This document shows positions 1,722 to 45,029 of a stretch of DNA of 64,000 bases, in pieces. The stretch is taken from the NCBI GenBank assembly GCA_965204835.1, contig OZ242017.1, positions 1,091,842 to 1,155,841 of the forward strand, written 5' to 3'. Each line of letters begins with the position of its first letter. The stretch's first letter is position 1. Under the pieces are notes generated by a model that made no database searches, was not told the origin of the DNA, and worked only from the letters and a program-made list of their open reading frames with translations. The position numbers and the translations under genes were made by a program. This stretch comes from Dehalococcoidia bacterium (lineage in GTDB: Bacteria; Chloroflexota; Dehalococcoidia; UBA2979).

Positions 1722-1823
1722 CGGAGGCGCCGTCTCCGTGCTCGCACAGCCACCGCTCCCCCTCGGCGCTTGCCTCGATCGGCGCTGCATCGGTAGGCTG
1801 CGCTCCTGCCGGGGGGCAGGCGC

Positions 1824-3032: not shown

Positions 3033-3041
3033 GAGCCGACG

Positions 3042-4343: not shown

Positions 4344-4395
4344 TCGCCGCTACAACGTCCGCGATGTTCCATATGTAGTATTCCGTACATGATGA

Positions 4396-4417
4396 GCGCA
4401 TCCCGAATGTGATGCGC
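4396..4417. promoter_or_regulatory. Inverted repeat GCGCATC-N8-GATGCGC in an AT-rich stretch upstream of the secreted nuclease-like gene; candidate operator
   Basis: The sequence is gcgcatcccgaatgtgatgcgc. It sits in an unusually AT-rich island at about 4350-4420 (catatgtagtattccgtacatgatg) in an otherwise 70% GC context, about 40 nt upstream of the 4458 start. Confidence 0.3.
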
Positions 4418-4457
4418 TCGACGCACCGCTGCGCCGGCGCCGCCGGTCCGACAGCAG

Positions 4458-5717
4458 GTGCGCATGGCTCGCGATGGCCTTCGCCGCCTCAGTGCGCTTG
4501 CGCTGTGGGCACTACTCGTTATTCCCGTTGCTGCGTGCACGAATCCCGCCGACGAGACCGTGGGTGGGGAGACCGTCGCTCCCTCACCGACAGCGGCCTC
4601 GACCCCCGCACCGGCGGCAACAGTCGCAACGAGCGCGACGCAGACCGCGACTCCCGCACCGACGGCGTCCGTTGCAGCGAGCCCGACACAGGTCCCGACT
4701 CCCGCACCGACGGCGACAGTCGCAGCAAGTCCCACGCAGGCTCCGACACCGCCCGCGACGCCCGTACCGCAGACCTCGCCAAGCCCAACGCCCGCTCCGG
4801 CAGCCACCACGACCGCGACGACTACGACGCTGAGCCTCGACGGAATCGCCGTGGCGCCCGAGAACTGCGCGGGGTACAACCGTGACCACTTCGCCGACTA
4901 TAACGCCCGCGCACTGCGCGACGGCTGGGACGCCGAGGATGGTGCGGCCGACGGCATCATCACCGGGTGGTACACCGGGCAGCGACTGGCGAACAACGGA
5001 CAGTCCGTCCACGTCGAGCACGTCGTCGCCCTCAAGGAAGCATGGTGCTCCGGCTATCGGGAGCCCTCGCTCGGGAACTGGTCGGCGAATCTTCGGCCGG
5101 CCCAGGCGGCCCTCAACCTGTCGAAGTCGGCTCGCGACCCCGCCGAGTGGGATCGGCCGGATCTCCCCGGCTGGTGTCGTTATCTCGCGCTCCACGTCCA
5201 GGTCAAGCGAGAGCTGGGGATGACCGCCGACCGTGCGGAACTCGAGTACATCGCCCGCTCATGGGCCGCCCACTGCGGCGACGCCGTGGCCGTGCCGACC
5301 GTCGAGCGAACACCGACTCCTGTGCCAACGGCGACGGCCGGATCGGTCTACACCGGGCCACAGCCGGCCCGGACCTGTGGAGAGTTCGGCTGGCGCGTCG
5401 ACCGTCGCACGCACCCGAATCTCTACGCTGCCCTGGACGCGCTGGGGATGCGCGACGGAAACAGCGACGGGATCATGTGCAACGCGGAGCGAGCCTACAA
5501 CGGACCGGACTACCCGGCCCAATCGCCGTCCGCGACTTCGACTCCAACGGCGAGTTCTAGTCCGGCGCAGGAGTTCCACTGCCACTGTAGACGCGTGATC
5601 AACGCCGGTACTCGCTGCGATCAGCGGTACACCGCGCAAGGCGGCCCCGGGTACTGCCACACCGGGGAGCCTCACGGAGCCTTCAATACATGGCCGCCGC
5701 CGCACAGCGGAAACTAG
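4458..5717 (+). CDS. Secreted lipoprotein with a DUF1524 (HNH/His-Me finger endonuclease-like, GmrSD C-terminal type) domain and a C-terminal Excalibur-like calcium-binding motif; Pro/Thr/Ala-rich linker
   Basis: There is a signal peptide with lipobox (LLVIPVAAC). The linker is low complexity (TPAPTASVAASPTQVPTPAPTATVAASPTQAPTPP). The core (NCAGYNRDHFADY...HVEHVVALKEAWCSGY...W...NL..A...NLSKSARDPAEW) matches secreted DUF1524 proteins. RDGNSDGIMCN resembles the Excalibur DxDxDGxxCE motif. The start may be GTG 4458 or ATG 4464. Confidence 0.65.
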   Translation: MRMARDGLRRLSALALWALLVIPVAACTNPADETVGGETVAPSPTAASTPAPAATVATSATQTATPAPTASVAASPTQVPTPAPTATVAASPTQAPTPPATPVPQTSPSPTPAPAATTTATTTTLSLDGIAVAPENCAGYNRDHFADYNARALRDGWDAEDGAADGIITGWYTGQRLANNGQSVHVEHVVALKEAWCSGYREPSLGNWSANLRPAQAALNLSKSARDPAEWDRPDLPGWCRYLALHVQVKRELGMTADRAELEYIARSWAAHCGDAVAVPTVERTPTPVPTATAGSVYTGPQPARTCGEFGWRVDRRTHPNLYAALDALGMRDGNSDGIMCNAERAYNGPDYPAQSPSATSTPTASSSPAQEFHCHCRRVINAGTRCDQRYTAQGGPGYCHTGEPHGAFNTWPPPHSGN

Positions 5718-5727
5718 TGGCGACTAC

Positions 5728-7011
5728 TCACGCGATCGCGCCGAGCTCTCGCAGGCGCGCGATCTCCGCGTCGTCGATGCCGTGCTCGCGCAGCACCTCG
5801 TCCGTGTGGCGGCCGAGGGGCGGCGAGGGGCGGTCGGTGCCCGTCGGCGTCTCCGACATGGAGACGATCGGGCCGACCATACGCTCGGGGCCCGTCAACT
5901 CGTGCTCCAGGTCGATCATGTAGCCCATCGCCTCGACCTGCGGGTCGTCGGCCATGTCCTCGGGCCAGTTCACCTTCGAGATTGGCGCGCCCTCGCGGTC
6001 GAAGATCTCGATCCACTCGTCCATGGTCTTCGTCATCATGATCCCGCGGATGCGCTCCAGCATCACGTCGACGAGCTTGCGGTTCTCCGGCGGGATCGAG
6101 TCGAACTCGGGGTCGGCCGTCGGGTCGTCCTCGACGCCGATGGCGCGCCGCATCTGGTCGCGGTTGAGCGGGGTGAGCGCGCCGAGGATGACGCCGCCGT
6201 CCTTGACGGCGTAGCCGCCGTAGAAGAGCCGCGCCGCGGCGCGCCCCATCACGTCGAAGAGGTTGCCGCGCGCGTCGAGCAGCTCCTTGTAGCTGCCGCC
6301 GGCCGCGCGCACCTCGTGCATCCGCTCCAGCGCCTTGTCGGTGGTCTGCGCGTCGAGCGCGGGGAGCTTGCCGATGCGCGTGCCCTGCAGCGCGAGGCCC
6401 GCGCGCAGCAGCGATGTCTCGACGAACTGGCCCTGCCCGGTGCGCTCGCGGTGGAAGAGCGCCGCCGAGATCGCCATGGCGCCGGCGAGGCCTGCCTGGA
6501 AGTCGGCGGGCGCGGTCGCGGTGATGATCTCGGGCTCGCCGAACTCGCCCACCTTGCCGTCGCCGGCGAGGAGGCCCGAGTAGGCCTGCGCGACGGCGTC
6601 GGAGCCCGAGCGGAACTCGCTGGGGCCGCCCCGGCCGAAGCCGGTGTTCTCGAAGTAGATGATGTCGGGGCGGAACTGCTTCAGCGTCTCGTAGTCGACT
6701 CGCAGCCGCTCGGGCACGCCCGGGCGGGCGTTGATGAGGAACACGTCGAAGCCCGGGATGATGCGGTGCACCATCTCCTGGGCGTCGGGCGAGCGCAGGT
6801 CGATGACGAGCGAGCGCTTGCCGCGGTTGAGGGAGTGGAATCCCTTGCTCTCGCCGGGCACGAAGCCGCCGGCCTGCCGGCTACCCTCGCCGCCCGGGGG
6901 CTCGACCTTGATCACGTCGGCCCCGAGGTCGGCCAGGTTGAGGCCGCAGTAGGGTCCCGCGACGATCTGCGAGACCTCGAACACCTTGATGCCATCCAGC
7001 GGACCCGGCAT
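5728..7011 (-). CDS. CoA-transferase family III (CaiB/BaiF) protein
   Basis: The N-terminus (LDGIKVFEVSQIVAGPYCGLNLADLGADVIKVEPPGG) matches the family. I chose the internal ATG at 7011 (MPGPLDG); the ORF track extends to 7086. Confidence 0.8.
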   Translation of the reverse strand: MPGPLDGIKVFEVSQIVAGPYCGLNLADLGADVIKVEPPGGEGSRQAGGFVPGESKGFHSLNRGKRSLVIDLRSPDAQEMVHRIIPGFDVFLINARPGVPERLRVDYETLKQFRPDIIYFENTGFGRGGPSEFRSGSDAVAQAYSGLLAGDGKVGEFGEPEIITATAPADFQAGLAGAMAISAALFHRERTGQGQFVETSLLRAGLALQGTRIGKLPALDAQTTDKALERMHEVRAAGGSYKELLDARGNLFDVMGRAAARLFYGGYAVKDGGVILGALTPLNRDQMRRAIGVEDDPTADPEFDSIPPENRKLVDVMLERIRGIMMTKTMDEWIEIFDREGAPISKVNWPEDMADDPQVEAMGYMIDLEHELTGPERMVGPIVSMSETPTGTDRPSPPLGRHTDEVLREHGIDDAEIARLRELGAIA

Positions 7012-7131
7012 GTACGACCCCTCCCCCATGTGCGGCGAACCCACGCCGCAGGCGCCTCGCCCCGACTCATGTACGCGAGGGCGCAAGCATACGCAACCGT
7101 GGAGCGGTCGAGGGGGCGGGGCCTGCCCCGG

Positions 7132-27310: not shown

Positions 27311-27393
27311 CGTTCGAGGCTACATCGGGGCCCTGCGGTGCGCGAGCGGGCCACTCGCCTGGCGAGGTATCGTGCAGGCGGATCGGAGGGTCC

Positions 27394-27789
27394 GTGCCGC
27401 GACTGTTCCGTGTGATCGTGCCCGTGCCGGACATGGCGGCCGCCGACGCCTTCTACAGGCGCGTCCTCGACATCGAGCCCGACGAGGTCACGCCGACGCG
27501 GCACTACTTCGACTGTGGCGGCGTGATCCTCGCGCTCGTCGACCCGTCCGCGCACGGCCGGGCGTTCCGCGCGAATCCAGACCTGGTCTACCTCGCCGTC
27601 CCCGACCTCGAGGCCGCGCTCGAACGCGCGACGGAGGCAGGCGCGCAGCTCCTCGAAGATGACGACGTGGGGTGGGGCATCCAGCAGCGGGTGTGGGGCG
27701 AGCGTAGCGCCTACTTCACCGACCCGTTCGGCAACCCGCTCTGCCTGGTCGACGAGACGACGTTGTTCACGGGGAGCAGCCAGGAGTAG
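27394..27789 (+). CDS. VOC/glyoxalase family protein
   Basis: GTG at 27394 is preceded by GGAGGG at 27384-27389 (VPRLFRVIVPVPDMAAADAFYRRVLDIEPDE...). It is a small betaalphabetabetabeta-module protein. Confidence 0.6.
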   Translation: MPRLFRVIVPVPDMAAADAFYRRVLDIEPDEVTPTRHYFDCGGVILALVDPSAHGRAFRANPDLVYLAVPDLEAALERATEAGAQLLEDDDVGWGIQQRVWGERSAYFTDPFGNPLCLVDETTLFTGSSQE

Positions 27790-27841
27790 CGGGCGCGGGA
27801 CCATTCCCGACCGGCACGACAAGACCTGGCTGATGCGCGTG

Positions 27842-28291
27842 TCAGGCGTCGGCGTCGAAGGTGGCGATATCAATCACCCTGCCGGTCGCCGGACCGAACG
27901 TCCGTAGCATGCCGCGATCCGCAGTAATGACTGGGCAGCTATGGCGTAAGGCCAGGGCGACATACAGGCAGTCGTACGACGGATGCTCAAAAGCGAGCGC
28001 CAACTCAAGCGCCTGCGCGGCGAGCCCTGCGGCCGGCGTGAGTTCGGGTAACGTCCCGAGGAGCGTGTCGAGGGCCTCGCGGGCCTCGTCGCGCGTGAGG
28101 TCGCCACGCAGGTGTGCGCTCTTCCAGAGGATGTTGGTGACCTCGGGCACGTACACGTCCGGGGCCAGAAGGCTCGTGTCTCCCCGAGTGGCGCTATCGA
28201 GCAGTGCGATTGCACGGTCGGAGTCTGGCTCGGCCACTGCCCACTTCGCGCCGACCGAGGCGTCTACAACGAGCGTCTCGGCCGGGGTCAA
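27842..28291 (-). CDS. vapC: PIN-domain toxin VapC
   Basis: PIN acidic residues are present (LVVDASV...EV...D..YVALAL...ITAD). The TTG start at 28291 overlaps the vapB stop as TTGA. Confidence 0.75.
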   Translation of the reverse strand: MTPAETLVVDASVGAKWAVAEPDSDRAIALLDSATRGDTSLLAPDVYVPEVTNILWKSAHLRGDLTRDEAREALDTLLGTLPELTPAAGLAAQALELALAFEHPSYDCLYVALALRHSCPVITADRGMLRTFGPATGRVIDIATFDADA

Positions 28292-28551
28292 CGGTCGCGG
28301 TCTTCGCGGATGAGCGGCCAACTCTCGTCCAGCGGCCCTCCGTTGCGCTCCTCGATGCGCGCCCGCAGTGCGTTCATCTGCGGGATGATGTCGCGGGCGC
28401 GCTTCCGCCACTCACGCTGCTCGGCGAGCTGCTGCAGCGCTGCGCGCACCAGGGCGTTCATGCTTGTACTTTTTTCGGCTGCTTCTTCGCGGAGTGCCTC
28501 CATGACGTCGTCGGGCACGTTCCTGACAGTGATCTGGGCCATCTGGTTCAC
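28288..28551 (-). CDS. vapB: Ribbon-helix-helix antitoxin VapB (Arc/FitA-like)
   Basis: N-terminus (MAQITVRNVPDDVMEALREEAAEKSTSMNALVRAAL) is an RHH fold. It overlaps the downstream PIN gene by 4 nt. Confidence 0.75.
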   Translation of the reverse strand: MNQMAQITVRNVPDDVMEALREEAAEKSTSMNALVRAALQQLAEQREWRKRARDIIPQMNALRARIEERNGGPLDESWPLIREDRDR

Positions 28552-28567
28552 CTGGCGATCGCGAACT

Positions 28568-28596
28568 GCATGCTTCTATGGATGCATTATGCATGC
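28568..28596. promoter_or_regulatory. Nested palindromes GCATGC-N8-ATGCATtATGCATGC in the AT-rich region immediately upstream of vapB; putative VapB operator and promoter
   Basis: ATGCATTATGCAT is a 13-nt perfect palindrome flanked by two GCATGC sites. It lies 17-45 nt upstream of the vapB start. RHH antitoxins bind inverted repeats to autorepress. Confidence 0.45.
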
Positions 28597-28674
28597 TCAA
28601 CACTGACGCCAGCAATGTGACGTCGTCCTCGAGATCACCCAGGGAGAACCGAATCTGCATGCGACCCGCGCCGG

Positions 28675-29913
28675 CTACTCCTCGCCCGGCGCGGCGAGGC
28701 GCAACGGGTCCGTCGGCTCGCCGAGGAGTTGCTGGCGCGCTTGCACCTCCAGCGGCAGCCCCCACAGCTTGATGAAGCCGAGCGCGGCCTGCTGGTCGAA
28801 GTCGTCCTCCGAGCCGTACGTCGCCAGTGCGTAGTTGTAGAGGCTGCGGTCCGAGCGGCTCCCGACGGCGTCGGCGTGCCCGCGCCACAGCCGCACGCGC
28901 ACCTCGCCCGTCACGTGGCGCTGCGTCGACCGCACGTAGGCGGCGAGGTCCTGGTGGTGCGCGCTGAACCACAGGCCGTTGTAGACCAGGTCCGCGTACT
29001 CCTGCGCGACCCGCGCCTTCATGCGCATCTGGTCCTTGGACAGTGTGAGCGTCTCCAGCTTGCGGTGCGCGGCCAGCAGCGTCACCGCAGCGGGCGCCTC
29101 GTACACCTCGCGGGACTTGATGCCCACCAGGCGGTTCTCGACCATGTCGAGCCGCCCGACGCCGTGCTCGCCGGCCACCTCGTTGAGCCGGTCGACGAGG
29201 TCCACGGGCGTGACCCGGTCACCGTCGAGGGATACGGGCATGCCCTGCTCGAAACCGATTACGATCTCCGCGGCCTCGGCCGGGGTGTCGTCGATGGGGC
29301 GCGTCCACTGGTAGGCGTCCTCGGGCGGGGTCACCCACGGGTCCTCGAGCGCGCCCGCCTCGATGGCGCGGCCCCACATGTTCTCGTCGATGGAGTACGG
29401 CGAGCGCTCGCCGCCCTCGACGGAGATGCCGTGCTCGCGGCAGTACGCGAGCGCCTCGTCGCGCGTCCACTGGTGCTCGCGCGCCGTGCCCACGATGGTC
29501 AGGTTCGGCGCGAGCGTGGCGAGCGCGACGTCGAAGCGCACCTGGTCGTTGCCCTTGCCTGTGCAGCCGTGCGCGACGGCCGTCGCGCCCACCTCGCGCG
29601 CCTTGTCGACGAGCAGCTTCGCGATGAGCGGCCGTCCGAGGGCCGTCGCGAGGGGGTACTCGCCCTCGTAGACCGCGTTGGCGGCCAGCCCGGGGAAGGC
29701 GAAGTAGCGCAGGAAGTCGTCGCGCGCGTCGACGACGGCATACTCGATGGCGCCTGCCTCGTTCGCCCGCTGCTCGGCGCCCTCCATGTCCTCGACGTTG
29801 CCGAGGTCGATGAGCAGGCAGATCACCTCGTAGCCGCGGTCCTCCTGCAGCCACTTCGTGGCTGCGGACGTGTCGAGGCCGCCTGAGTAGGCAAGGACGA
29901 TGCGTTCGGCCAT
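28675..29913 (-). CDS. argG: Argininosuccinate synthase
   Basis: MAERIVLAYSGGLDTSAATKWL carries the PP-loop SGGLDTS. 412 aa. Confidence 0.9.
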   Translation of the reverse strand: MAERIVLAYSGGLDTSAATKWLQEDRGYEVICLLIDLGNVEDMEGAEQRANEAGAIEYAVVDARDDFLRYFAFPGLAANAVYEGEYPLATALGRPLIAKLLVDKAREVGATAVAHGCTGKGNDQVRFDVALATLAPNLTIVGTAREHQWTRDEALAYCREHGISVEGGERSPYSIDENMWGRAIEAGALEDPWVTPPEDAYQWTRPIDDTPAEAAEIVIGFEQGMPVSLDGDRVTPVDLVDRLNEVAGEHGVGRLDMVENRLVGIKSREVYEAPAAVTLLAAHRKLETLTLSKDQMRMKARVAQEYADLVYNGLWFSAHHQDLAAYVRSTQRHVTGEVRVRLWRGHADAVGSRSDRSLYNYALATYGSEDDFDQQAALGFIKLWGLPLEVQARQQLLGEPTDPLRLAAPGEE

Positions 29914-35234: not shown

Positions 35235-36556
35235 GTCGTGTAGTCCGCGTTGATGCTCACGTACTCGGCGGTCAGGTCGCATCCCCACGCCGTCGCGGTC
35301 GCCTCACCGCAGGCCAGGTCGATGCGGATCGTGACCTCCTCGGTGTCCATGGCGGCGGAGATCTCCGCCTCGCTCGTCGCGGCCGGCGCGCCGCGGTCGA
35401 ACGCGACGTGCTCGCCGATCCACACGCTGGCGGCGGCAAGGTCGATCGAGGCGCCCGAGCGCCCAGCGGCCATGAGCACGCGCCCCCAGTTCGGGTCGCG
35501 GCCGGTCACCATCGTCTTCACGAGCGGCGACGAGCTGATCGTGCGAGCGCACAGCCGCGCGTCCCCGGCGCTCGCCGCGCCCTCGACCACCACCGTGATG
35601 AGCGTGTTCGCCCCCTCGCCGTCGCGCGCGAGCTGGCGCGCGAGGTCCACCGAGACCGCCTCGACGGCGCGTTCGAGGGCGTCTGCCGCGGGGTGCCCGT
35701 CGCGGACGGGCTCGCCGCCTGCCGCGCCGCTGGCGAGCAGCAGCACGGTGTCGGACGTCGAGGTGTCCATGTCCACGTCGACCATGTTGAAGGAGCGGTC
35801 GCAGACGCGGCGCAGCGTGGCCTGGAGCCACTCGCGGTCGGCGGGCGCGTCGGTGGTGAGGAAGCCGAACATCGTCGCCATGTCGGGGTGGATCATCCCC
35901 GACCCCTTGGCGACGCCGCCGACGGTGTAGGTGCGGCCGTCCACTTCGACGCGGACGGCGGCCTCCTTGGGGTGCGTGTCGGTGGTCATAATCGCGCGCG
36001 CGAACGCCTCGCCGCCCGACTCCGAGACCTCGACGGCGTCGATGCCGGCCTCGATGCGGTCCATCGGGAGGAGGCGGCCGATCACGCCTGTCGAGCCGAC
36101 GAGCACGTGCTCCGTGTCGACGCCGAGCTTCGCGGCGGCGAGCGCGGTCATGCGCAGCGCGTCCTCGACGCCCTGCGCGCCCGTCGCGACGTTCGAGCAG
36201 CCGGAGTTGGCGACGATGGCGCGCGCGACGCCACCCGCCGCCCGCTCGCGGGTGAGCCGCACCGGCTCGCCGACGACGGCGTTGCGCGTGTAGACGCCCG
36301 CGACGGTGCACGGGCGGTCGGCGGCGAGGATGCCCACGTCGAGGCGCGGCTCGGGGCCGTAGGTCTTGATGCCGGCGTAGCTGCCGCCCGCGACGAACCC
36401 CGCGGGCGCGGTCACGCCGCCCTCGATGGTCTCGATGCGCGCCTCGACGGCCTGCGGGGGGTTGGTCAAGCGTGGCTCCCGTCCGGCGACTGAGTATAGG
36501 CAGCGATGCCGCTTGTGCTCAGCCTGCCGGGATCGCCTCGGCTCAGGCCGGGGCAA
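35231..36556 (-). CDS. argJ: Bifunctional glutamate N-acetyltransferase / amino-acid acetyltransferase
   Basis: ArgJ autoproteolytic-site region (ATLRRVCDRSFNMVDVDMDTSTSDTVLLLASG). The start is either ATG 36556 or TTG 36469. Confidence 0.85.
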   Translation of the reverse strand: MPRPEPRRSRQAEHKRHRCLYSVAGREPRLTNPPQAVEARIETIEGGVTAPAGFVAGGSYAGIKTYGPEPRLDVGILAADRPCTVAGVYTRNAVVGEPVRLTRERAAGGVARAIVANSGCSNVATGAQGVEDALRMTALAAAKLGVDTEHVLVGSTGVIGRLLPMDRIEAGIDAVEVSESGGEAFARAIMTTDTHPKEAAVRVEVDGRTYTVGGVAKGSGMIHPDMATMFGFLTTDAPADREWLQATLRRVCDRSFNMVDVDMDTSTSDTVLLLASGAAGGEPVRDGHPAADALERAVEAVSVDLARQLARDGEGANTLITVVVEGAASAGDARLCARTISSSPLVKTMVTGRDPNWGRVLMAAGRSGASIDLAAASVWIGEHVAFDRGAPAATSEAEISAAMDTEEVTIRIDLACGEATATAWGCDLTAEYVSINADYTT

Positions 36557-37250
36557 GCCCCACGCGCGGGCAGTGCGCGAGCAGGGGGCAGCGCTCGCAC
36601 TCGGGGTTGCGGGCGTGGCACGTGCGGCGGCCGTGCTGGATCAGGTCGACGTGGAACGGGAGCATCTGCTCGGGCTCCAGCATCTCCTCGATCAGCTCGG
36701 CCTGGCGGTCCGGCGACGCCTTCTCGGGCGTCAGTCCCAGCCGCTTCGCCACCCGCCCGACGTGCGTGTCGACGGGCATCGCGGGGCGGCCGAGGGCGAA
36801 CATGAGCGTGACCGCCGCGCTCTTGTGGCCCACGCCCGGCAGCGAGCGCAGCCACGCCTTCGCCTCCTCGATCGGCATCGTCTCGAGGAAGTCGATGTCG
36901 AAGTCCGGGACGCGGTCGCGCACCTCGGCGAGGAGCGCCTGCAGCCGGGGCGCCTTCGTCGGCGCGAGCCCGCCCGGCCGGATCGCGTCCTCGACCGCGC
37001 TCGTCGGCGCCTCGATCACGTCCTCCCACGCGGGGAAGCGCTCGATCAGGCGGTGGAACGCCCGGCCCGAGTTGTGGTCCGAGGTGTGTTGCGAGAGCAG
37101 CGCGAGCACGAGCTCGGAGATCGCGTCGCCGTGCGGGCGCTCCGGCGGACGGCCGTACGCCTCGTCGAGGATCGCGAGCATCCCGGCGATGTCCCAGCGA
37201 TCGGACAGACCCTCGGACGAAGCGGTCGCGAGACTGCGTGTCGATGGCAT
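36543..37250 (-). CDS. Endonuclease III-like HhH-GPD base-excision glycosylase with a 4Fe-4S cluster loop
   Basis: HhH-GPD motif (LPGVGHKSAAVTLMFALGRPAMPVDTHV) and C-X6-C-X2-C-X5-C (CHARNPECERCPLLAHC). ATG at 37250. Confidence 0.75.
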   Translation of the reverse strand: MPSTRSLATASSEGLSDRWDIAGMLAILDEAYGRPPERPHGDAISELVLALLSQHTSDHNSGRAFHRLIERFPAWEDVIEAPTSAVEDAIRPGGLAPTKAPRLQALLAEVRDRVPDFDIDFLETMPIEEAKAWLRSLPGVGHKSAAVTLMFALGRPAMPVDTHVGRVAKRLGLTPEKASPDRQAELIEEMLEPEQMLPFHVDLIQHGRRTCHARNPECERCPLLAHCPRVGLAPA

Positions 37251-37293
37251 GGCGGCATCGTACGATGGGGAGCGCACGAGCGGAGGGCAGCGC

Positions 37294-38340
37294 GTGACGG
37301 CTGAGCAGATTCGCCTCACCGACCTCGCATCCTGCGGCGGCTGAGCGGGAAAGCTGGGTCTCGCGACCCTGGCGCAGGTGCTGCGCCCCCTGCATGAGGT
37401 CTTCGCTCCCGGGCAGCACCCCGAGCTGCTCGTTGGCCTCGCGCCGTCCGATGACGCCGCGGTGTTCCGCGTGAGCGACGACCTCGCCGTCATCCAGACG
37501 CTCGACTTCTTCCCGCCGGTGGTCGACGACCCCTACATCTACGGGCAGATCGCCGCGGCGAACGCCATGTCCGACGTGTACGCGATGGGCGGCGAGGTGA
37601 AGCTCGCGCTCAACATCGCGGCGTTCCCGGAGGACCTCGACCCCGAGCTGCTCGCCGAGATCGTGCGCGGCGGCGCGGACAAGGTCGCCGAGGCGGGCGG
37701 CGTCGTGGCCGGCGGCCACACGGTGATCGACGCGGAGCCGAAGTACGGGCTCTCCGTGATGGGCGTGATCCACCCCGACGCCGTGCTCACCACCGGCGGC
37801 GCGCAGCCCGGCGACGCGCTGCTGCTCACCAAGCCGCTCGGCACCGGCATCCTCATGAGCGCCGCCGGCCGCGAGGGCGCCGAGGCGGGCTTCGAGGCTG
37901 CCGTCGAGTCGATGCGCGCGCTCAACCGCCACCCGGCCCACCTCGCACGCGCCGCGGCGGCGCACGCGGTCACGGACGTGACGGGGTTCGGGCTCGCCGG
38001 CCACGCCTCCGAGGTGGCGCAGCAGAGCGGCGCGACGCTGGTCTTCGACCTCGACGCGTTGCCGCTGCTGCCGGACGCCGCCCGCTTCGCCGCCGAGGGC
38101 GTCGTGACGGGCGGCGGCAACCGCAACGTCGCGCACCTCGGCGACCGCGTGCGCATCGAGGGCGAGCCCGACCAGGCGCTCGTCGACGTGTTCTACGACC
38201 CGCAGACCTCGGGCGGCCTGCTCATCGCCGTGCCCGAGGCCGATGCCGCCGCGCTCAGCGACGCAATCGCGGGCGAGGGCGGCGGATGCTGGCGCATCGG
38301 GCACGTCGAGGAGGGCCCGCCGCTCGTGGTGGCACGGTGA
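37294..38340 (+). CDS. selD: Selenide, water dikinase (selenophosphate synthetase) encoded as a selenoprotein: in-frame UGA (Sec) at 37342-37344
   Basis: GTG at 37294 is preceded by GGAGGG at 37282-37287. It translates to VTAEQIRLTDLASCGG-U-AGKLGLATLAQVLRPLHEV..., which aligns with E. coli SelD [20 protein letters not shown], with U17 on Cys17 and K20 on K20. The rest (DDAAVF...DFFPPVVDDPY...TDVTGFGLAGH...DPQTSGGLL) is an unambiguous SelD body. The ORF track reported only the part after the UGA (37378-38340). Two small hairpins lie 10-45 nt downstream of the UGA. Confidence 0.85.
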
Positions 38341-39083
38341 GGCGGCTGCTCGGGGCGCTGCTCGCCCTGCTGGCCATCGTGCTGGCACTGGCGGCCGCGG
38401 CCTGCTTCGGCGGCGACGAGGAACCAGCGGCGCCCACCGCCACTCCGACTGCGACCTCGATGCCGGTACCGACCCCCACGCCCGTCGACCCGGCCGCGGT
38501 GGTCCACGAGTCGGCCGACCGCATGGAGGGCATCCAGCGGTTCCACTTCACGCTCGACCACGAGAACGGGGCGAGCGAGATCGTGCGCGGCATCATGATG
38601 GTGTACGCCGAAGGCGACTTCGACGGCGCGGAGCGCATGCGCGCGGAGATCGAGGGTGCGCTCGGCACGGTGAAGTTCGAGACCGCCGTCATCGTGCTAC
38701 CCGAGGGGAGCTGGCTCAAGAACCCGTTCGACCGCTCGTGGGAGGCCGAGGAGATCTCCATCGAGGAGTTCTTCGACCCGCAGAACGGCGTCGCCGCGCT
38801 CATGCGCCAGGTGACGGAGCCCACCCTCGTCGGCCGCGAGGAGTTCGGGGGCGTCGAGACGTACCGCATCGACGTGCTCGCCGACTCGGGCGACCTCGCG
38901 ATCTTCCCGACCGCCGAGCCCGGCTTCGAGGTGCGTGCGACGCTCTGGATCGGCGTGGACGACCTGCTGCTGTACCGCGTGGACGTGCTCGGCGCGATCT
39001 CGGAGGACGAGGAGTCCGACATCCTGCGACGCCTCGAGCTGAGCCGCTTCGGCGAGGACGTGGACATTGCCCCGCCGCCGTGA
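38337..39083 (+). CDS. Lipoprotein, LppX/LprG-like (putative)
   Basis: The GTG at 38337 overlaps the selD stop as GTGA. Signal peptide plus lipobox (LLALLAIVLALAAAAC) and a Pro/Thr linker. The mature domain has weak LprG-like beta-rich features. Its position directly upstream of an MFS pump mirrors the mycobacterial lprG-p55 operon. Confidence 0.5.
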   Translation: MRRLLGALLALLAIVLALAAAACFGGDEEPAAPTATPTATSMPVPTPTPVDPAAVVHESADRMEGIQRFHFTLDHENGASEIVRGIMMVYAEGDFDGAERMRAEIEGALGTVKFETAVIVLPEGSWLKNPFDRSWEAEEISIEEFFDPQNGVAALMRQVTEPTLVGREEFGGVETYRIDVLADSGDLAIFPTAEPGFEVRATLWIGVDDLLLYRVDVLGAISEDEESDILRRLELSRFGEDVDIAPPP

Positions 39084-40569
39084 TCCGGGCCACGATGAGG
39101 CCGAAGACCTCGACGCCTCCACGTCGCGCGGCAGCGCCTCGCTGCTGATCGCCGTCGCGGGCGGCGTCTTCATCGCCGCCGACGACCAGACCTCGGTGGT
39201 CACGGTGCTGCCGGCGCTCATCCCCGACATCGGCCTCGCGGTCGACGACTTCTTCCTCGCGTCGTGGGTGATCAACGGCTACCTGCTCGGCTACATCGTG
39301 GCGCTGCCGATCGTCGGCCGCATCGCCGATGCGCGCGGGCACGGCCGCGTGTACGCGGGCTCGCTCGGCGTGTTCATGCTCGGCAGCGCGCTGGTGGCCG
39401 CCGCGCCGGACTTCTGGTCCCTCGTCGTCGCGAGGGGCCTGCAGGCCGTCGGCGGCGGCGCGGTCGTGCCGGTGGCGATGGCCATCGTCGTGACGCAGAT
39501 GCCGCCCGAGCGCCGCGCGCTGGGGCTGGGTGCGATCGCCGCGGCGTCTGAGGCGGGAGCACTCGTTGGCCCGCTCTGGGGCGGCCTCATCACCGAGCTG
39601 TGGGGCTGGCGGTGGATGTTCTGGCTCAACCTGCCCATGTCGCTGCCGGTGCTCGGCGCCGTGTGGTGGCTCGCGCGCAACGAACGCGCCGAGGGTCGCA
39701 TCGACTGGCCGGGCGCGGCGCTCCTCGCTGCGGCGCTGGCCGCGCTCACCATCGCCATCGCCGACGACCCGATCGCGCCCCGCCACTGGGCGATCACGAC
39801 GCTGCTCCTCGCGGGGACGGCCGCGCTCGCGGTCGTCTTCGCGCTGCGTCAGCGCTGCGTCGAGGAGCCGATGGTGCGGCTCTCGATGTTCGCCTCGAAG
39901 CAGGTGTCGAGCGCCGCAGTGATGAGCGTGCTGGTGGGCGCGGGGCTCATCACCGCGCTGATCAGCGTGCCGCTGTTCGTGAACCTCGTGCTCGTCGAGC
40001 GACCGATCGACGGGGGCTTCACGCTGCTGCGCTTCACCGCCGCCGTGCCCGTCGGCGCGCTCGCCGGGGGGTGGGTTACGGGGCGCATCGGGCCGCGGCT
40101 GCCGGCCGCCGCCGGCGTGCTGCTCGGCGCCGCATGCTTCGCGGGGCTGCTGCCGTGGGATGAGGTGCTCCCCGAGGTGTGGCGCAGCACGCCGCTCATC
40201 GTCGGCGGCTTCGGGTTCGGGCTGCTGATCGCCCCGCTCGGCGTGGCGGTGCTCAGCCACGTGCGCGAGGAGGAGCGCGCCGTGGCCGCCTCGTGGCTCA
40301 CGCTGGCGCGGATGGGCGGGATGCTGGTGGGGACGGGCCTGCTCACCTCGCACGGCCTCGGGCGCTTCTACGCGCGGGCCGGTGCGATCGAGTTCGACTC
40401 GCCGGAGTTCGCCGAGCTGGTGACCGAGGCGCAGGTCTCGACCTTCCACGAGATCTGGGTCGTCGCCGCACTCGTGCTGGTGGTGACCGCTGCGCTAGCG
40501 TGGTGGCTCGGTGGCCGCGCCGAGCCCGGCGAGGAGGCCGCGGAGTGGTGGTCCGCGCCGACCAGGTAG
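39067..40569 (+). CDS. MFS transporter (DHA2 drug:H+ antiporter-like, about 14 TM)
   Basis: MFS motifs (ADDQTSVVTVLPALIPDIG...GRIADARGHGRV...RGLQAVGGGAVVP). The TTG start at 39067 overlaps the end of the lipoprotein gene, so the start is uncertain. Confidence 0.75.
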   Translation: MPRRRDPGHDEAEDLDASTSRGSASLLIAVAGGVFIAADDQTSVVTVLPALIPDIGLAVDDFFLASWVINGYLLGYIVALPIVGRIADARGHGRVYAGSLGVFMLGSALVAAAPDFWSLVVARGLQAVGGGAVVPVAMAIVVTQMPPERRALGLGAIAAASEAGALVGPLWGGLITELWGWRWMFWLNLPMSLPVLGAVWWLARNERAEGRIDWPGAALLAAALAALTIAIADDPIAPRHWAITTLLLAGTAALAVVFALRQRCVEEPMVRLSMFASKQVSSAAVMSVLVGAGLITALISVPLFVNLVLVERPIDGGFTLLRFTAAVPVGALAGGWVTGRIGPRLPAAAGVLLGAACFAGLLPWDEVLPEVWRSTPLIVGGFGFGLLIAPLGVAVLSHVREEERAVAASWLTLARMGGMLVGTGLLTSHGLGRFYARAGAIEFDSPEFAELVTEAQVSTFHEIWVVAALVLVVTAALAWWLGGRAEPGEEAAEWWSAPTR

Positions 40570-40642: not shown

Positions 40643-41866
40643 CTAGCCGCGCGGCAGCGCGAGTCCTCGCGTCGCGATGATGTTGCGCTGGATCTCGTTC
40701 GAGCCGCCGAAGATCGTGTAGACGACGCTGTGCACGTAGAGCTGGGTGAACCGCGCGTCGAGCGGGGTGCGCTCGTGGGCGCGGTCCCAGATGTTCGAGT
40801 AGAGCCCGAACACCTTCATGCCGGTGTTCGCGGTGCGCTGGTTCAGCTCGGAGCCGAAGATCTTCGAGGTCGACGCCTCGTAGTTCGGGACCATCCCGCT
40901 CGCCTGGATCGAGATGATGCGGAACGAGAAGTTGAACAGCACCTCCGACTCGATCCAGCGGTCGGCGATGAGCGTGCGGGCGCGGTCGCCGCGGTCCTGC
41001 GCCCGCAGCCGGCCCTCGTCGGTGTCGAGGTAGTCGATGAGCGAGCGGAGGCGTCGCCGCGTCTCGACCGCGCCGGCGATGTTGGAGCGCTCGAAGTCGA
41101 GCAGCGTCATGCCGACGTACCAGCCGCGGTTGACCTCGCCGATGACGTTGGTGGCGGGGACGCGGACGTCCTCGAAGAACGTCTCGTTGGTGCCGTGCTC
41201 CCAGCCCATGGTGATGATGGGGCGGACGGAGATCCCGTTGTTCTCCTGGGGCATCACCATGAAGGTGATGCCGCGGTGCTTCGGGGCGTCGGGGTCGGTG
41301 CGGAACATCCCGAAGACCCAGTTGGACTTGTGGGCCGAGGAGGTCCACATCTTCTGGCCGTTGATGATGTACTCGTCGCCGTCGCGGACCGCGCGCGTCT
41401 GCAGCGAGGCGAGGTCCGACCCCGCGCCCGGCTCCGAGAACCCCTGCGCCCAGAGGATCTCGCCGCGCAGCGTCGGGGGTAGCAGCCGCTCCTTCTGCTC
41501 GTCGGTGCCGTGGATGAGCACCGTGGGGCCGAGCAGCGAGAGGCCGCCGCCGCCCACCAGCGGCGCCTCGGCCTCGGCCATCTCCATGTTGAAGATGAAC
41601 TGCTCCATGGTCGTCAGGCCGGCGCCGCCGTACTCCTGTGGCCAGTGCGGGGCGGACCAGCTGCGCGAGTCCAGCGTCGCGGCCCACTCGCGCGCCGCGG
41701 CCTGCGCCTCCTCGCTGCCGTGGACCATGTCCTGCTGCCAGTTGTCCTCGAGGGTGACGGCGCTCCAGCGCCGCTTGTCCTTGTAGTACTGCGGCAGGTT
41801 CTCGTCGATGAAGCTGCGCACGTCCTCGCGGAACGCGGCCTGCTCTGCAGTGTCTTCCCAGTCCAT
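40643..41866 (-). CDS. Acyl-CoA dehydrogenase (tandem paralog A)
   Basis: 407 aa from ATG 41866 (MDWEDTAEQAAFREDVRSF...). ACAD N/M/C domain signatures are present (GFSEPGAGSDLASLQTRAVRDGDEYIINGQKMWTS ... YEASTSKIFGSE). Confidence 0.85.
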   Translation of the reverse strand: MDWEDTAEQAAFREDVRSFIDENLPQYYKDKRRWSAVTLEDNWQQDMVHGSEEAQAAAREWAATLDSRSWSAPHWPQEYGGAGLTTMEQFIFNMEMAEAEAPLVGGGGLSLLGPTVLIHGTDEQKERLLPPTLRGEILWAQGFSEPGAGSDLASLQTRAVRDGDEYIINGQKMWTSSAHKSNWVFGMFRTDPDAPKHRGITFMVMPQENNGISVRPIITMGWEHGTNETFFEDVRVPATNVIGEVNRGWYVGMTLLDFERSNIAGAVETRRRLRSLIDYLDTDEGRLRAQDRGDRARTLIADRWIESEVLFNFSFRIISIQASGMVPNYEASTSKIFGSELNQRTANTGMKVFGLYSNIWDRAHERTPLDARFTQLYVHSVVYTIFGGSNEIQRNIIATRGLALPRG

Positions 41867-41918
41867 GCGCTGCCTCCTCGGCGTGCCGGTCACGTCTCCG
41901 GCGTGATTGCTGCGAGGG

Positions 41919-41928
41919 AGTCTAACAG
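41919..41928 (-). promoter_or_regulatory. Conserved extended -10-like motif cTGtTAGACT upstream of ACAD copy A; equivalents are upstream of copy B (about 43305) and copy C (about 44985)
   Basis: The motif on the gene strand is ACGCTG(T/C/G)TAGA(C/A)TC(C/T)C(T/G)CGCA. It occurs about 50 nt upstream of each of the three ACAD starts and resembles the actinobacterial extended -10 (TGnTAnnnT). Confidence 0.35.
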
Positions 41929-41984
41929 CGTCCCTGCTCACGGGCGTCTGGCTCGCAGGCGCCAGCCCGGCGGGCGACGCGAAC

Positions 41985-42006
41985 GCGCCCCGGTTGCCCG
42001 GGGCGC
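41985..42006. terminator. Hairpin GCGCCCCGG-TTGC-CCGGGGCGC downstream of ACAD copy B (loop inverted relative to the other two copies)
   Basis: Same 9-bp stem as at 40595 and 43661, but the loop reads TTGC instead of GCAA. Confidence 0.5.
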
Positions 42007-42031
42007 GCTGCGTGGTGCCTGCGAGGTGGGA

Positions 42032-43255
42032 CTAGCCGCGCGGCAGGGCCAGCCCTCGCGTCGCGATGATGTTGCGCTGGATCTCGTTGGAGCCGCCGAA
42101 GATCGTGAACACCACGCTGTGCACGTAGAGCTGCGTGAAGCGCGCGTCCAGCGGGGTCAACTCGTGCGCCCGGTCCCAGATGTTGGCGTACAGGCCGAAC
42201 GCCTTCATGCCGGTGTTCGCCGTGCGCTGGTCCAGCTCGGAGCCGAAGATCTTCGAGGTCGACGCCTCGTAGTTCGGGACCATCCCGCTCGACTGCATCG
42301 AGATGATGCGGAACGAGAAGTTGAACAGCACCTCGGACTCGATCCAGCGGTCGGCGATCAGCGCGCGCGTCCGTTGCGCCCGGTCCTGCGACCGCAACTG
42401 CCCGTCGTCCGTGTCGAGGTAGTCGATCAGCGACTGCAGCCGCCGACGAGTCTCGACCGCGCCCGCGATGTTGGAGCGCTCGAAGTCGAGCAGCGTCATC
42501 CCGACGTACCAGCCGCGGTTGACCTCGCCGATGACGTTGTTGGCGGGCACGTGGACGTCCTCGAAGAACGTCTCGTTGGTGCCGTGCTCCCAGCCCATGG
42601 TGGTGATGGGACGGACGGTGATGCCGTTGTTGAGCTGCGGCATGACCATGAACGTGATGCCGCGGTGCTTCGGGGCGTCGGGGTCCGTGCGGAACATCCC
42701 GAACAGCCAGTTGGACTTGTGGGCCGAGGAGGTCCACAGCTTCTGGCCGTTGATGATGTACTCGTCACCGTCGCGCACCGCGCGCGTCTGCAGCGAGGCG
42801 AGGTCTGAGCCGGCGCCCGGCTCCGAGAAGCCCTGCGACCACAGCATCTCGCCGCGCAGCGACGGCTCCAGCAGGCGCTCCTTCTGCTCGTCGGTGCCGT
42901 GGATCAGCACCGTCGGCCCGAGGAGCGAGAGGCCGCTGCCGCCGACCATGGGAGCCTCGGCCTCGGCCATCTCCATGTTGAAGATGAACTGCTCCATGGT
43001 GGTGAGCCCGCCGCCGCCGTACTCGTTCGGCCAGTGCGGCGCGACCCAGTTCCGCGAGGAGAGCACGTCGGCCCACTCCTGCGCGGCGGCCTTGGCCTCG
43101 TCGCTGCCGTGCATCATGTGGTCCTGCCAGTCATCCTCCAGGGTGACTGCGTTCCACTCCCGCTTGTCCTTGTAGTACTGCGGCAGGTTCTCCTCGATGA
43201 ACGAGCGGACGTCCTCGCGGAACGTCGCCTGCTCTGCAGTGTCTTCCCAGTCCAT
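42032..43255 (-). CDS. Acyl-CoA dehydrogenase (tandem paralog B)
   Basis: 407 aa, about 85-90% identical to copies A and C (MDWEDTAEQATFREDVRSFIEENLPQYYKDKREWNAVTLEDDW...). Confidence 0.85.
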   Translation of the reverse strand: MDWEDTAEQATFREDVRSFIEENLPQYYKDKREWNAVTLEDDWQDHMMHGSDEAKAAAQEWADVLSSRNWVAPHWPNEYGGGGLTTMEQFIFNMEMAEAEAPMVGGSGLSLLGPTVLIHGTDEQKERLLEPSLRGEMLWSQGFSEPGAGSDLASLQTRAVRDGDEYIINGQKLWTSSAHKSNWLFGMFRTDPDAPKHRGITFMVMPQLNNGITVRPITTMGWEHGTNETFFEDVHVPANNVIGEVNRGWYVGMTLLDFERSNIAGAVETRRRLQSLIDYLDTDDGQLRSQDRAQRTRALIADRWIESEVLFNFSFRIISMQSSGMVPNYEASTSKIFGSELDQRTANTGMKAFGLYANIWDRAHELTPLDARFTQLYVHSVVFTIFGGSNEIQRNIIATRGLALPRG

Positions 43256-43399
43256 GCGCTGCCTCCTCGTGGACGCGTCGCGTCCGCCGTGCGTATCTGC
43301 GAGGGAGTCTAGCAGCGTCTGTCACGCCACCGGAGCGGATCACGGGCGGGTCGCGAGGTCGCTGGCCATCGGGAGCGACTGCTGAGCTATGATCCGGTC

Positions 43400-43630
43400 A
43401 TGGCGACCACACGACTCGACATGGACGGGGCGCAAGCCCAGCTCCCGGAGCACGTCGCGCGGCTGGAGCCCGGCGATAGCATCATCCTGTGTCGCGAAGG
43501 CCGCCCCGTGGCCGAGATCCGGCCGATCGAGGAGCCCCTGGCCGAGCCTCGCCCGGTCGGGTTGGGCAAGGGTCTCGTCGAGATCCCCGACTCCTTCTTC
43601 GAGCCGCTTCCCCCGTCTGCCTTCTCGTAG
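43400..43630 (+). CDS. Orphan type II antitoxin-like protein (VapB/Phd-like; C-terminal LGxGKGxxEIPDSFFEPLP motif)
   Basis: 76 aa (MATTRLDMDGAQAQLPEHVARLEPGDSIILCREGRPVAEIRPIEE...PVGLGKGLVEIPDSFFEPLP). It resembles antitoxins whose C-terminus carries the (L)LKG...DDFDxPL motif. No cognate toxin gene follows it. Confidence 0.5.
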   Translation: MATTRLDMDGAQAQLPEHVARLEPGDSIILCREGRPVAEIRPIEEPLAEPRPVGLGKGLVEIPDSFFEPLPPSAFS

Positions 43631-43660
43631 CGATAGCGCACGGTCCACGCAGATGCAAAC

Positions 43661-43682
43661 GCGCCCCGGGCAACCGGGGCGC
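43661..43682. terminator. Hairpin GCGCCCCGG-GCAA-CCGGGGCGC downstream of ACAD copy C
   Basis: Third copy of the element, about 25 nt after the copy C stop. Confidence 0.5.
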
Positions 43683-43707
43683 GCTGCTGCGTGCGTGCGA
43701 GGAGGGA

Positions 43708-44931
43708 CTAGCTGCGAGGCAGCGCCAGTCCGCGCGTCGCGATGATGTTGCGCTGGATCTCGTTCGACCCACCGAAGATCGTGAACACCACGCTGTGGAC
43801 GTAGAGCTGCGTGAAGCGCGCGTCCAGCGGCGTGAGCTCGTGCCCGCGGTCCCAGATGTTCGCGTAGAGCCCGAACGCCTTCATGCCGGTGTTTGCCGTG
43901 CGCTGCGAGAGCTCCGAGCTGAAGATCTTCGAGGTCGACGCCTCGTAGTTCGGGACCATCCCGCCCGCCTGCATCGAGATGATGCGGAACGAGAAGTTGA
44001 ACAGCACCTCGGACTCGATCCAGCGGTCGGCGATCAGCCCGCGCGTCCGGCCTGCGCGGTCCTGCGACTTCAGCGAGCCCTCGTCCGTGTGCAGGTAGTC
44101 GATCAGCGACTGCAGCCGCCGACGCGTCTCGACCGCGCCCGCGATGTTGGAGCGCTCGAAGTCGAGCAGGGTCATGCCGACGTACCAGCCGCGGTTGACC
44201 TCGCCGATGACGTTGTTGGCGGGGACGCGCACGTCCTCGAAGAACGTCTCGTTGGTGGCGTGCTCGAAGCCCATCGAGATGATCGGGCGGACCGAGATGC
44301 CGTTGTTGGTCTGCGGCATGACCATGAAGCTGATGCCGCGGTGCTTCGGCGCGTCGGGGTCGGTGCGGAACATGCCGAACAGCCAGTTGGACTTGTGGGC
44401 CGTGGAGGTCCACATTTTCTGGCCGTTGATGATGTACTCGTCGCCGTCGCGGACGGCGCGCGTCTGCAGCGAGGCGAGGTCTGAGCCGGCGCCCGGCTCG
44501 GAGAAGCCCTGCGACCAGAGCATCTCACCGCGCAGCGTCGGCGCCAGCAGGCGCTCCTTCTGCTCGTCGGTGCCGTGGATCAGCACGGTCGGGCCCATGA
44601 GCGAGAGGCCCTGGCCGCCGACCATGGGGGCCTCGGCCTCGGCCATCTCCATGTTGAAGATGAACTGCTCCATGGTGGTGAGGCCGGCGCCGCCGTACTC
44701 CTGCGGCCAGTGCGGGGCGACCCAGTTGCGCGAGGACATGCGGTCGGACCACTCCTGCGCGGCGGCCTTCGCCTGGTCGCTGCCGTGGACCATGTCCATC
44801 TGCCAGTCATCCTCGAGGGTGACGGCGTTCCAGGCCCGCTTGTCCTTGTAGTACTGCGGCAGGTTGTCGTCGATGAAGCTGCGGACGTTCTCGCGGAATG
44901 CCGCCTGCTCTTCGGTGTCTGCCCAATCCAT
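43708..44931 (-). CDS. Acyl-CoA dehydrogenase (tandem paralog C)
   Basis: 407 aa (MDWADTEEQAAFRENVRSFIDDNLPQYYKDKRAWNAVTLEDDW...). Same family as copies A and B. Confidence 0.85.
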   Translation of the reverse strand: MDWADTEEQAAFRENVRSFIDDNLPQYYKDKRAWNAVTLEDDWQMDMVHGSDQAKAAAQEWSDRMSSRNWVAPHWPQEYGGAGLTTMEQFIFNMEMAEAEAPMVGGQGLSLMGPTVLIHGTDEQKERLLAPTLRGEMLWSQGFSEPGAGSDLASLQTRAVRDGDEYIINGQKMWTSTAHKSNWLFGMFRTDPDAPKHRGISFMVMPQTNNGISVRPIISMGFEHATNETFFEDVRVPANNVIGEVNRGWYVGMTLLDFERSNIAGAVETRRRLQSLIDYLHTDEGSLKSQDRAGRTRGLIADRWIESEVLFNFSFRIISMQAGGMVPNYEASTSKIFSSELSQRTANTGMKAFGLYANIWDRGHELTPLDARFTQLYVHSVVFTIFGGSNEIQRNIIATRGLALPRS

Positions 44932-45029
44932 GCATGCCTCCTCGCCGTGCGCGTCGCGCCGCTGCGTGTGTGCTGACGCGAGATTCTACCAGCGTTTCCC
45001 GTTACGTCCCGCCGCCGCGCCGACGAGGA

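Follow-up and report, generated by a model that had tools for sequence, protein, structure and literature searches.

A predicted selenocysteine codon and a candidate in-frame bacterial SECIS hairpin in selD of an uncultured Dehalococcoidia bacterium

A 64-kb stretch of DNA (64,000 nucleotides of contig OZ242017.1, hereafter referred to as the window) carries a selD gene, coding for selenide,water dikinase, that is interrupted by an in-frame TGA codon at 37342..37344 on the + strand. We are highly confident that this gene encodes a selenoprotein, in which the UGA would specify the catalytic selenocysteine (Sec) at residue 17 with the help of a bacterial Sec insertion sequence (bSECIS) located within the reading frame. 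Family models, the alignment to SelD, the alternation between TGA and Cys codons in relatives, a hairpin found downstream of the TGA and the public gene calls all agreed with this proposal, first made in an initial annotation that described a UGA-Sec selD with an overlooked N-terminus. The window has a G+C content of 70.7%, and its source is an uncultured Dehalococcoidia bacterium as judged by the closest loci, which belong to Dehalococcoidia/Chloroflexota metagenome-assembled genomes.

The selD reading frame and its catalytic loop

The full-length coding sequence (37294..38340, + strand) is made of 348 codons, including Sec17. It reads VTAEQIRLTDLASCGG, followed by the TGA at 37342-37344 and by AGKLGLATLAQVLRPLHEV, and continues to a TGA stop codon at 38338-38340. 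The GTG start codon (37294..37296, + strand), at a position kept in relatives, lies 6 nt after a Shine-Dalgarno-like GGAGGG motif (37282..37287, + strand); direct reading of the sequence confirmed this motif and its spacing, both described previously. The AAG codon at 37351..37353 (+ strand) is equivalent to Lys20 of the N-terminal catalytic loop in the alignment to Escherichia coli SelD. In the mechanical list of open reading frames (ORFs), selD only began at GTG 37378 and was 320 residues long (37378-38340). Public gene calls also gave 320 residues, and the initial annotation was right in stating that the true N-terminus had been missed.

Profile searches were carried out with a full-length translation in which Cys was substituted at codon 17. 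This translation matched the selD model TIGR00476 with 368.2 bits (cut-off 125) over residues 7-317, from profile position 1, and NF002098 with 308.3 bits (cut-off 299) over residues 3-339. Alignment of the 37294-38340 translation to SelD families had been suggested as a check on the proposal, and the models indeed matched from residue 3-7 onwards. The best phmmer match among solved structures was E. coli SelD (3u0o; E = 5.7e-62), with query residues 4-320 aligned to residues 4-317. The N-terminus of this alignment was ungapped and placed codon 17 on Cys17 and codon 20 on Lys20, bearing out the earlier assignment of IRLT to residues 6-9, of the TGA to Cys17 and of a conserved lysine to position 20. 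Given the model matches and the ungapped alignment to the SelD N-terminus, the stretch 5' of the TGA is homologous to that N-terminus. The SelD motifs DDAAV, TxDFF, NAxSDxxAMGG and TDVTGFG were intact and aligned with those of the E. coli and Aquifex aeolicus enzymes; they are the ATP- and metal-binding motifs of AIRS-type proteins, with residue roles that are well established. For the glycine-rich loop, with Cys/Sec17 and Lys20, to be complete, translation has to begin at 37294 and continue past the TGA. Judged by its sequence, the enzyme looks functional and not decayed.

The similarity to E. coli SelD extends residue by residue through IRLT at 6-9, position 17, Lys20 and the catalytic motifs. 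The two genes differ in that the E. coli gene has a TGC-type codon for Cys17 and no SECIS, whereas the window selD has a UGA and a predicted SECIS; E. coli SelD also has Gly-Cys19 where the window protein has Ala-Gly. The Sec-type SelD of A. aeolicus (PDB 2yye/2zod) belongs to the same family, has its UGA position in the glycine-rich loop (xSxGU-A-x-K) and could be aligned across the site. Another Sec-containing SelD is that of Haemophilus influenzae. Sec-containing bacterial SelDs have a bSECIS in the coding sequence shortly 3' of the UGA, as is predicted for the window selD, with no essential difference between them. Particular to the window gene are its host, an uncultured Dehalococcoidia bacterium with 70% G+C, and a Cys at position -3 relative to Sec (C-G-G-U), which is missing from the S-S-G-U of the Clostridia type.

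This Cys is part of a C-x-x-U arrangement, Cys14-Gly-Gly-Sec17, encoded by 37333-37344, which becomes C-x-x-C in Cys-type relatives (loci L019, L024 and L025 of the comparison set described below). Sec SelDs of the Clostridia type have S-S/A-G-U with no Cys at -3, and E. coli SelD has its second Cys at +2. Based on these alignments, the position of the resolving thiol in SelD may vary from one lineage to another.

Scanning one genome per GTDB species yielded 80 selD-homologous loci, which were given L numbers. The closest ones shared 99% (L001-L002), 91-95% (L003-L006), about 78% (L007-L016) and about 60% (L017-L023) amino acid identity with the window protein. The codon aligned with 37342-37344 was TGA in 68/80 loci and a Cys codon (TGC/TGT) in the other 12, and the presence of the same TGA codon in so many species loci is a pattern beyond chance. 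The peptide 5' of the TGA was conserved across loci as xRLTxLASC[GA]G. Within the 16 codons preceding the TGA, L017-L023 differed from each other largely by synonymous changes (CTG/TTG/CTC, TCA/TCG), and the residues were the same apart from I/V and S/T exchanges. L001-L006 and L008-L016 start with GTG, as does the window, and L019, L020, L022 and L023 have an ATG in its place; in L007, L017, L018 and L021 an ATG was found one codon upstream of the window start position. A GGAGG-type motif was present at the equivalent place in L001-L021. Sequence similarity was lost 5' of the ribosome-binding site, so that conservation began at this site and the start codon. Among the findings that would speak against it, the initial annotation had named relatives that start 3' of the UGA with an N-terminus of their own; instead, the start and the upstream peptide were conserved before the TGA. 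The first two bases of the Lys20 codon (AA; alignment columns 10-11) were invariant in both Sec-type and Cys-type sequences.

Codons 8-16 before the UGA (window 37315-37344; CTC ACC GAC CTC GCA TCC TGC GGC GGC) were identical at every base in the window and in 15/16 of L001-L016, the only deviant being L004 with a single base change (GAC to GAG). This base-level identity was maintained despite a SelD protein identity of only about 78% between the two subclades. It hints at an extra constraint acting on the nucleotide sequence just 5' of the Sec codon.

These comparisons bear on two other explanations of the TGA. Were it a real stop codon, the product would be the 320-residue protein starting at GTG 37378, or the gene would be a decaying pseudogene. 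The locus is read in this way by ORF-finding programs and in public gene calls, and Sec machinery is only presumed for the source genome. However, such a protein would be devoid of the N-terminal loop carrying the equivalents of Cys/Sec17 and Lys20, which are required for SelD catalysis, and its start at 37378 has no Shine-Dalgarno sequence before it, whereas GGAGGG precedes 37294. Across the 68 species, the 16 codons before the TGA are conserved and vary at synonymous sites; 3' of the TGA lies a hairpin that only TGA-type genes share, and the remaining gene is intact, with the score of a full SelD. We therefore consider a genuine stop very improbable. The second explanation is that a Cys codon (TGC/TGT) was misread during sequencing or assembly. 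This would require only one base change, but the TGA was found in 68 independently assembled genomes, including the near-identical L001 and L002 and long-read chromosome-level assemblies, which makes the probability of such an error negligible.

Two hairpins downstream of the TGA

Two adjacent hairpins, both proposed as SECIS candidates in the initial annotation, follow the TGA within the coding sequence. Hairpin 1 (GGGUC-UCGC-GACCC; 37356..37369, + strand) begins 11 nt after the UGA, and direct reading of the sequence placed it exactly where it had been reported. Hairpin 2 (GGCGCAG-GUG-CUGCGCC; 37371..37387, + strand), the predicted SECIS and SelB-binding element, has a 7-bp stem and encodes Ala-Gln-Val-Leu-Arg. 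Its stem-loop sequence had been identified correctly, but not its position: the 6-bp form (GCGCAG-GUG-CUGCGC) lies at 37372-37386, and the coordinates given earlier (37367-37381) were about 5 nt too far upstream. The GUG apical loop of hairpin 2 is GTG 37378-37380, the spurious start codon of the 320-residue ORF.

The comparative analysis of the hairpins used two alignments. The first was built from the window and the 68 TGA-type loci, each contributing the TGA and the 51 nt after it (69 sequences, gap-free, 60 of them distinct), and the second covered the same region of the 12 Cys-type loci. Hairpin 2 was tested as columns 30-36 paired with columns 40-46. Paired cells amounted to 88.8% in the 60 distinct Sec-type sequences as compared to 47.6% in the 12 Cys-type sequences, and 6/7 pairs had changed on both sides; pair 33-43, for example, was G-C in 32 sequences, A-U in 9, U-A in 9 and C-G in 1. 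In none of 500 shuffles was the pairing percentage or the covariation score of the real alignment reached, and shifting the 3' partner by 1-3 columns reduced pairing to 35-52%. RNAalifold, which was not seeded with the window fold, returned the hairpin 2 helix as the only structure common to all 69 sequences, with compensatory changes in 5/6 pairs. Folding each sequence separately at the hairpin 2 site gave a median of -9.9 kcal/mol for Sec-type versus -2.9 kcal/mol for Cys-type sequences (Mann-Whitney p = 5e-6).

In the published bSECIS model (PMC13188914, Fig. 2A), an apical loop of 3-9 nt is carried by a stem of 4-16 bp, a G occurs in the first two loop positions and is usually followed by G or U, the loop lies 16-37 nt from the UGA, and the minimum free energy is -7.5 kcal/mol or lower. 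Hairpin 2 agreed with the model on all four counts, with a GUG loop on a 7-bp stem, G followed by U, a spacing of 33 nt and -11.3 to -12.1 kcal/mol. Hairpin 1 has a UCGC loop on a 5-bp stem, a spacing of 16 nt and -7.0 to -8.2 kcal/mol (-8.2 kcal/mol when folded in isolation); with no G in the first two loop positions, it fails the loop rule. As a SECIS candidate, hairpin 2 was thus upheld on each count and hairpin 1 was not. Bulge-free hairpins passing all four criteria were detected in 43/60 Sec-type sequences as opposed to 1/12 Cys-type sequences; in 38 of the 43, the hairpin occupied the hairpin 2 site. GU was present in the loop at the hairpin 2 columns in 54/60 Sec-type versus 7/12 Cys-type sequences and was kept in all 17 species of the window clade.

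The constraint on hairpin 2 is also visible in the protein it encodes. The third base of the Ala codon (GCG/GCA/GCU; column 33) covaried with position 1 of the codon following Leu (column 43), and the residue after Leu was Arg (CGC), Cys (UGC/UGU) or Ser (AGC), tracking the Ala codon used. According to the aligned sequences, the predicted SECIS hairpin itself codes for the AQVL[R/C/S] peptide that is conserved in Sec-type SelD, and RNA pairing shapes the protein sequence.

Covariation in a fixed register proved less suited to hairpin 1, in which 5/5 pairs had changed on both sides but only 60% of the cells paired because the register (and the loop) vary between lineages. Per-sequence folding was used in its place, and gave medians of -6.45 kcal/mol for Sec-type and -2.15 kcal/mol for Cys-type sequences (p = 5e-5). 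Hairpin 1 could be the SelB-binding SECIS of the same selenoprotein, hairpin 2 then being an accessory element or a by-product of the conserved AQVLR peptide. Its start 11 nt after the UGA equals the spacing in the minimal E. coli fdhF SECIS, the canonical SECIS example given in BSepDB for the Acetomicrobium SelD is the first hairpin, and hairpin 1 is also enriched in Sec-type genes. Against this, its UCGC loop has no G at position 1 or 2 and does not fit the published model, and both loop sequence and register vary between lineages. In hairpin 2, by contrast, the GU of the loop is almost invariant, RNAalifold recovers no other helix across phyla, and the GC/AU/UA covariation also alters the encoded residue (R, C or S). 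A SECIS role for hairpin 1 is therefore unlikely, though less so than a real stop codon. We consider it likely from the sequence comparisons that hairpin 2, not hairpin 1, is the SelB-binding SECIS, and hairpin 1 probably has an accessory or spacing role.

With hairpin 1 folded, the distance between the UGA and the base of hairpin 2 shrinks to about 12 unpaired nt. This effective spacing would be close to the 11 nt from the UGA in the minimal fdhF SECIS of E. coli. The fdhF element is a single hairpin with a bulged U, its upper stem begins 11 nt after the UGA, and the GU of the loop serves in SelB binding. The window element is likewise a stem-loop in the coding sequence 3' of the UGA, and its apical loop also contains G and U; it differs in that the GU loop lies 33 nt from the UGA, an additional hairpin stands in between, and no bulged U is evident.

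A further counterpart is the bSECIS of Clostridiales SelD, in which a stem 2 is located downstream of a stem 1 and stem 2 alone fits the bSECIS model (Mariotti et al. 2015; PMC4561486, Supplement S6, Fig. SM6.1A). The window has the same two-stem arrangement and belongs to the Chloroflexota. A general bSECIS model across bacteria could not be derived in that study (PMC4561486). In our set, the tandem layout was also found in Planctomycetota, Acidobacteriota, Halanaerobiales and other loci; this is a modest extension of the Clostridiales description and not a new kind of element. Three Sec-type selD genes of Methylomirabilota/Rokuibacteriota (L028, L031 and L056) did not have the two-hairpin layout. 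They contained a single long perfect palindrome, CUCCUGGAG-AU-CUCCAGGAG, from TGA+16 to TGA+35, across the junction of the two hairpin sites, which may represent a different bSECIS solution.

Following the established bacterial Sec pathway, we infer a mechanism in which, while the ribosome is on the first 16 codons, the downstream mRNA would fold into the two adjacent hairpins. Hairpin 2, with its 7-bp G+C-rich stem and GUG loop, would act as the bacterial SECIS and bind the SelB-GTP-Sec-tRNA(Sec) complex, which would decode the UGA as Sec in competition with RF2. Hairpin 1 would be an accessory or spacer bringing the base of hairpin 2 to within about 12 unpaired nt of the UGA, and selA, selB and selC would be encoded elsewhere in the genome. 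As SelD would need its own product in order to be made, positive autoregulation is a reasonable inference.

Selenocysteine machinery and the genetic code

Some results weigh against a Sec-encoding selD. Hairpin 2 encodes the conserved AQVLR peptide, hence part of its conservation reflects protein constraint. No Rfam match reached the gathering score over the whole window, nor was there any with E <= 10 in 37200-37500. The single-sequence fold of 37342-37420 was no stabler than shuffled controls (z = 0.33). As to the machinery, tRNA scans covered the window and 60 loci and found no tRNA-Sec in the window (nor a tRNA gene of any kind), about 43 window ORFs scanned against Pfam included no SelA or SelB, and neither tRNA-Sec nor selA or selB was seen within 6 kb of selD in L001-L016. 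The Rfam miss was not counted against a bSECIS because bacterial SECIS elements share little sequence (PMC13188914). The single-sequence fold is uninformative because of the 70% G+C, so that the structural case rests entirely on comparative evidence. On folding of the region after the UGA, which the initial annotation had put forward as a check, the stem-loop did not stand out in the window alone and was recovered by RNAalifold when sequences were compared. A homology search for SelA returned about 8000 matches; among the best 120, none was tied to an assembly with a window-type selD, a result that says nothing on absence. A proxy for G+C based on amino acid composition, also used towards locating the machinery, did not discriminate.

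Sec machinery was encountered next to selD in two relatives from the next clade of Chloroflexota. L023 has a cluster of selD, selB (TIGR00475, 316.8 bits), tRNA-Sec and selA (TIGR00474, 553.6 bits), and L017 has selB and tRNA-Sec near selD. Compared with the window, hairpin 2 of L017 (GGCGCAG-GUA-CUGCGCC) has an identical stem and a single change, at the third base of the loop. In L023 (GGCGCAG-GUC-UUGCGCC), a G-U replaces the G-C closing pair in addition to the change of loop base.

These loci bear on the possibility that the UGA is read through without Sec, for example by a near-cognate Trp or Cys tRNA, in a lineage that has lost selA, selB and selC; this would be a bacterial counterpart of the insect SPS1-UGA. 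Mariotti et al. 2015 (PMC4561486) proposed readthrough of this kind for certain SPS genes of eukaryotes, and no Sec machinery was found for the lineage in the window, in the 6-kb selD flanks of the relatives or among the listed SelA matches. On the other side, all 17 species of the clade retain a hairpin 2 with the traits of a SelB-binding bSECIS, the loop GU among them, and the stem of this hairpin is the same in L017 and one closing pair off in L023, both with selB and tRNA-Sec near selD. Dehalococcoidia are also reported to rank among the most selenoprotein-rich bacteria (PMC13326102). Furthermore, SelD is not known to do anything but make the selenium donor, so that its retention argues for selenium use. 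With the TGA and an intact SelB-type hairpin persisting in 17 clade species, a loss of the Sec machinery is very unlikely on sequence grounds, and we consider readthrough without Sec about as improbable as a real stop codon. Decoding of the UGA as Sec remains the preferred explanation.

A global reassignment of TGA was considered and rejected, as TGA ends 14/42 confident ORFs of the window, including selD. Another Sec-like TGA, at 45750 on the minus strand, was also rejected and corresponds to an ordinary boundary between two genes (sulfotransferase and hydrolase). A scan of the window for further in-frame TGAs with coding signal on both sides yielded nothing besides this boundary. Stop codons of the confident ORFs with high GC3 were TAG in 25 cases, TGA in 14 and TAA in 3; the corresponding counts were TAG 28/TGA 20 in L001-L006 and TAG 22/TGA 33 in L007-L016. 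As a stop codon, TGA is normally much commoner than TAG in high-G+C bacteria, and the stop usage of the window is unusual for a 70% G+C genome. Concerning selA, the SelA loci of other high-G+C Dehalococcoidia (L081-L090) showed this gene adjoining serA (phosphoglycerate dehydrogenase) and a class V aminotransferase gene (serC-like), not selB or selD. In these sequences selA thus stands beside serine-biosynthesis genes.

Public annotation and genomic context

The exact 320-residue truncated product is present in the public protein collection, in a 90% cluster of 10 members that each have 320 residues. One member is named 'selenide,water dikinase', and the largest contigs with members measure 2.73 and 2.93 Mb. 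On contig_1 of ENA ERZ25068475, the gene was called as 320 residues and the true N-terminus lies in a 197-nt 'intergenic' gap. Only one prokaryotic selenoprotein family is described as more widespread than Sec-containing SelD, in which Sec is the residue of the N-terminal loop that serves in catalysis (PMC13188914); this SelD is also described as frequently misannotated (PMC13326102). A UGA-Sec selD with the UGA at the catalytic position is therefore an arrangement already known and routinely missed by gene callers. The main value of the present case is one of annotation: a public 320-residue fragment without its catalytic loop, at this locus and in nine cluster mates, would be corrected to a 348-residue selenoprotein. 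The source organism is marked as a probable selenocysteine user, and further UGA-interrupted genes are therefore expected elsewhere in its genome. This expectation fits reports of Dehalococcoidia as selenoprotein-rich, with genomes containing 46-49 selenoproteins (PMC13326102). No new question of selenium biology is raised, and the by-product is a clean case of RNA structure constraining protein sequence (AQVL[R/C/S]).

The selD gene is followed by a gene for an LppX/LprAFG-family lipoprotein (38337..39083, + strand; PF07161, 3.2e-13), whose GTG start overlaps the selD stop (GTGA) and which is probably co-transcribed with selD. An MFS transporter gene (39067..40569, + strand; PF07690, 1.1e-39) overlaps the end of the lipoprotein gene. 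The order selD-lipoprotein-MFS was kept in L001-L016, and the trio was also found on contig_1 of ERZ25068475. This lipoprotein and MFS pair resembles the mycobacterial lprG-p55; we know of no link between the pair and selenium. Divergent from selD is an endonuclease III-like (HhH-GPD) gene (36546..37250, - strand; PF00730, PF10576), the ATG of which lies 43 nt from the selD start and which adjoins selD in L001-L016 and L022. It is followed by an arg cluster (argJ, argB, a UPF0182 gene, argD, a glyoxalase-family gene, argG and argH). Among the loci compared, the full arrangement of the selD neighbourhood was conserved in L001-L016 only.

Within the arg cluster, the interval between argH and argG (27319-28675, 1.35 kb) contained no ORF with high GC3 and gave no Rfam match, and its G+C content dipped to 0.62-0.66. 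Tandem paralogues were observed at 1797-7131 and 40643-44985, comprising three family III CoA-transferase and three acyl-CoA dehydrogenase genes, and thiolase-like, enoyl-CoA hydratase and CoA-ligase-like genes were found elsewhere in the window. This gene content suggests a large acyl-CoA catabolic repertoire.

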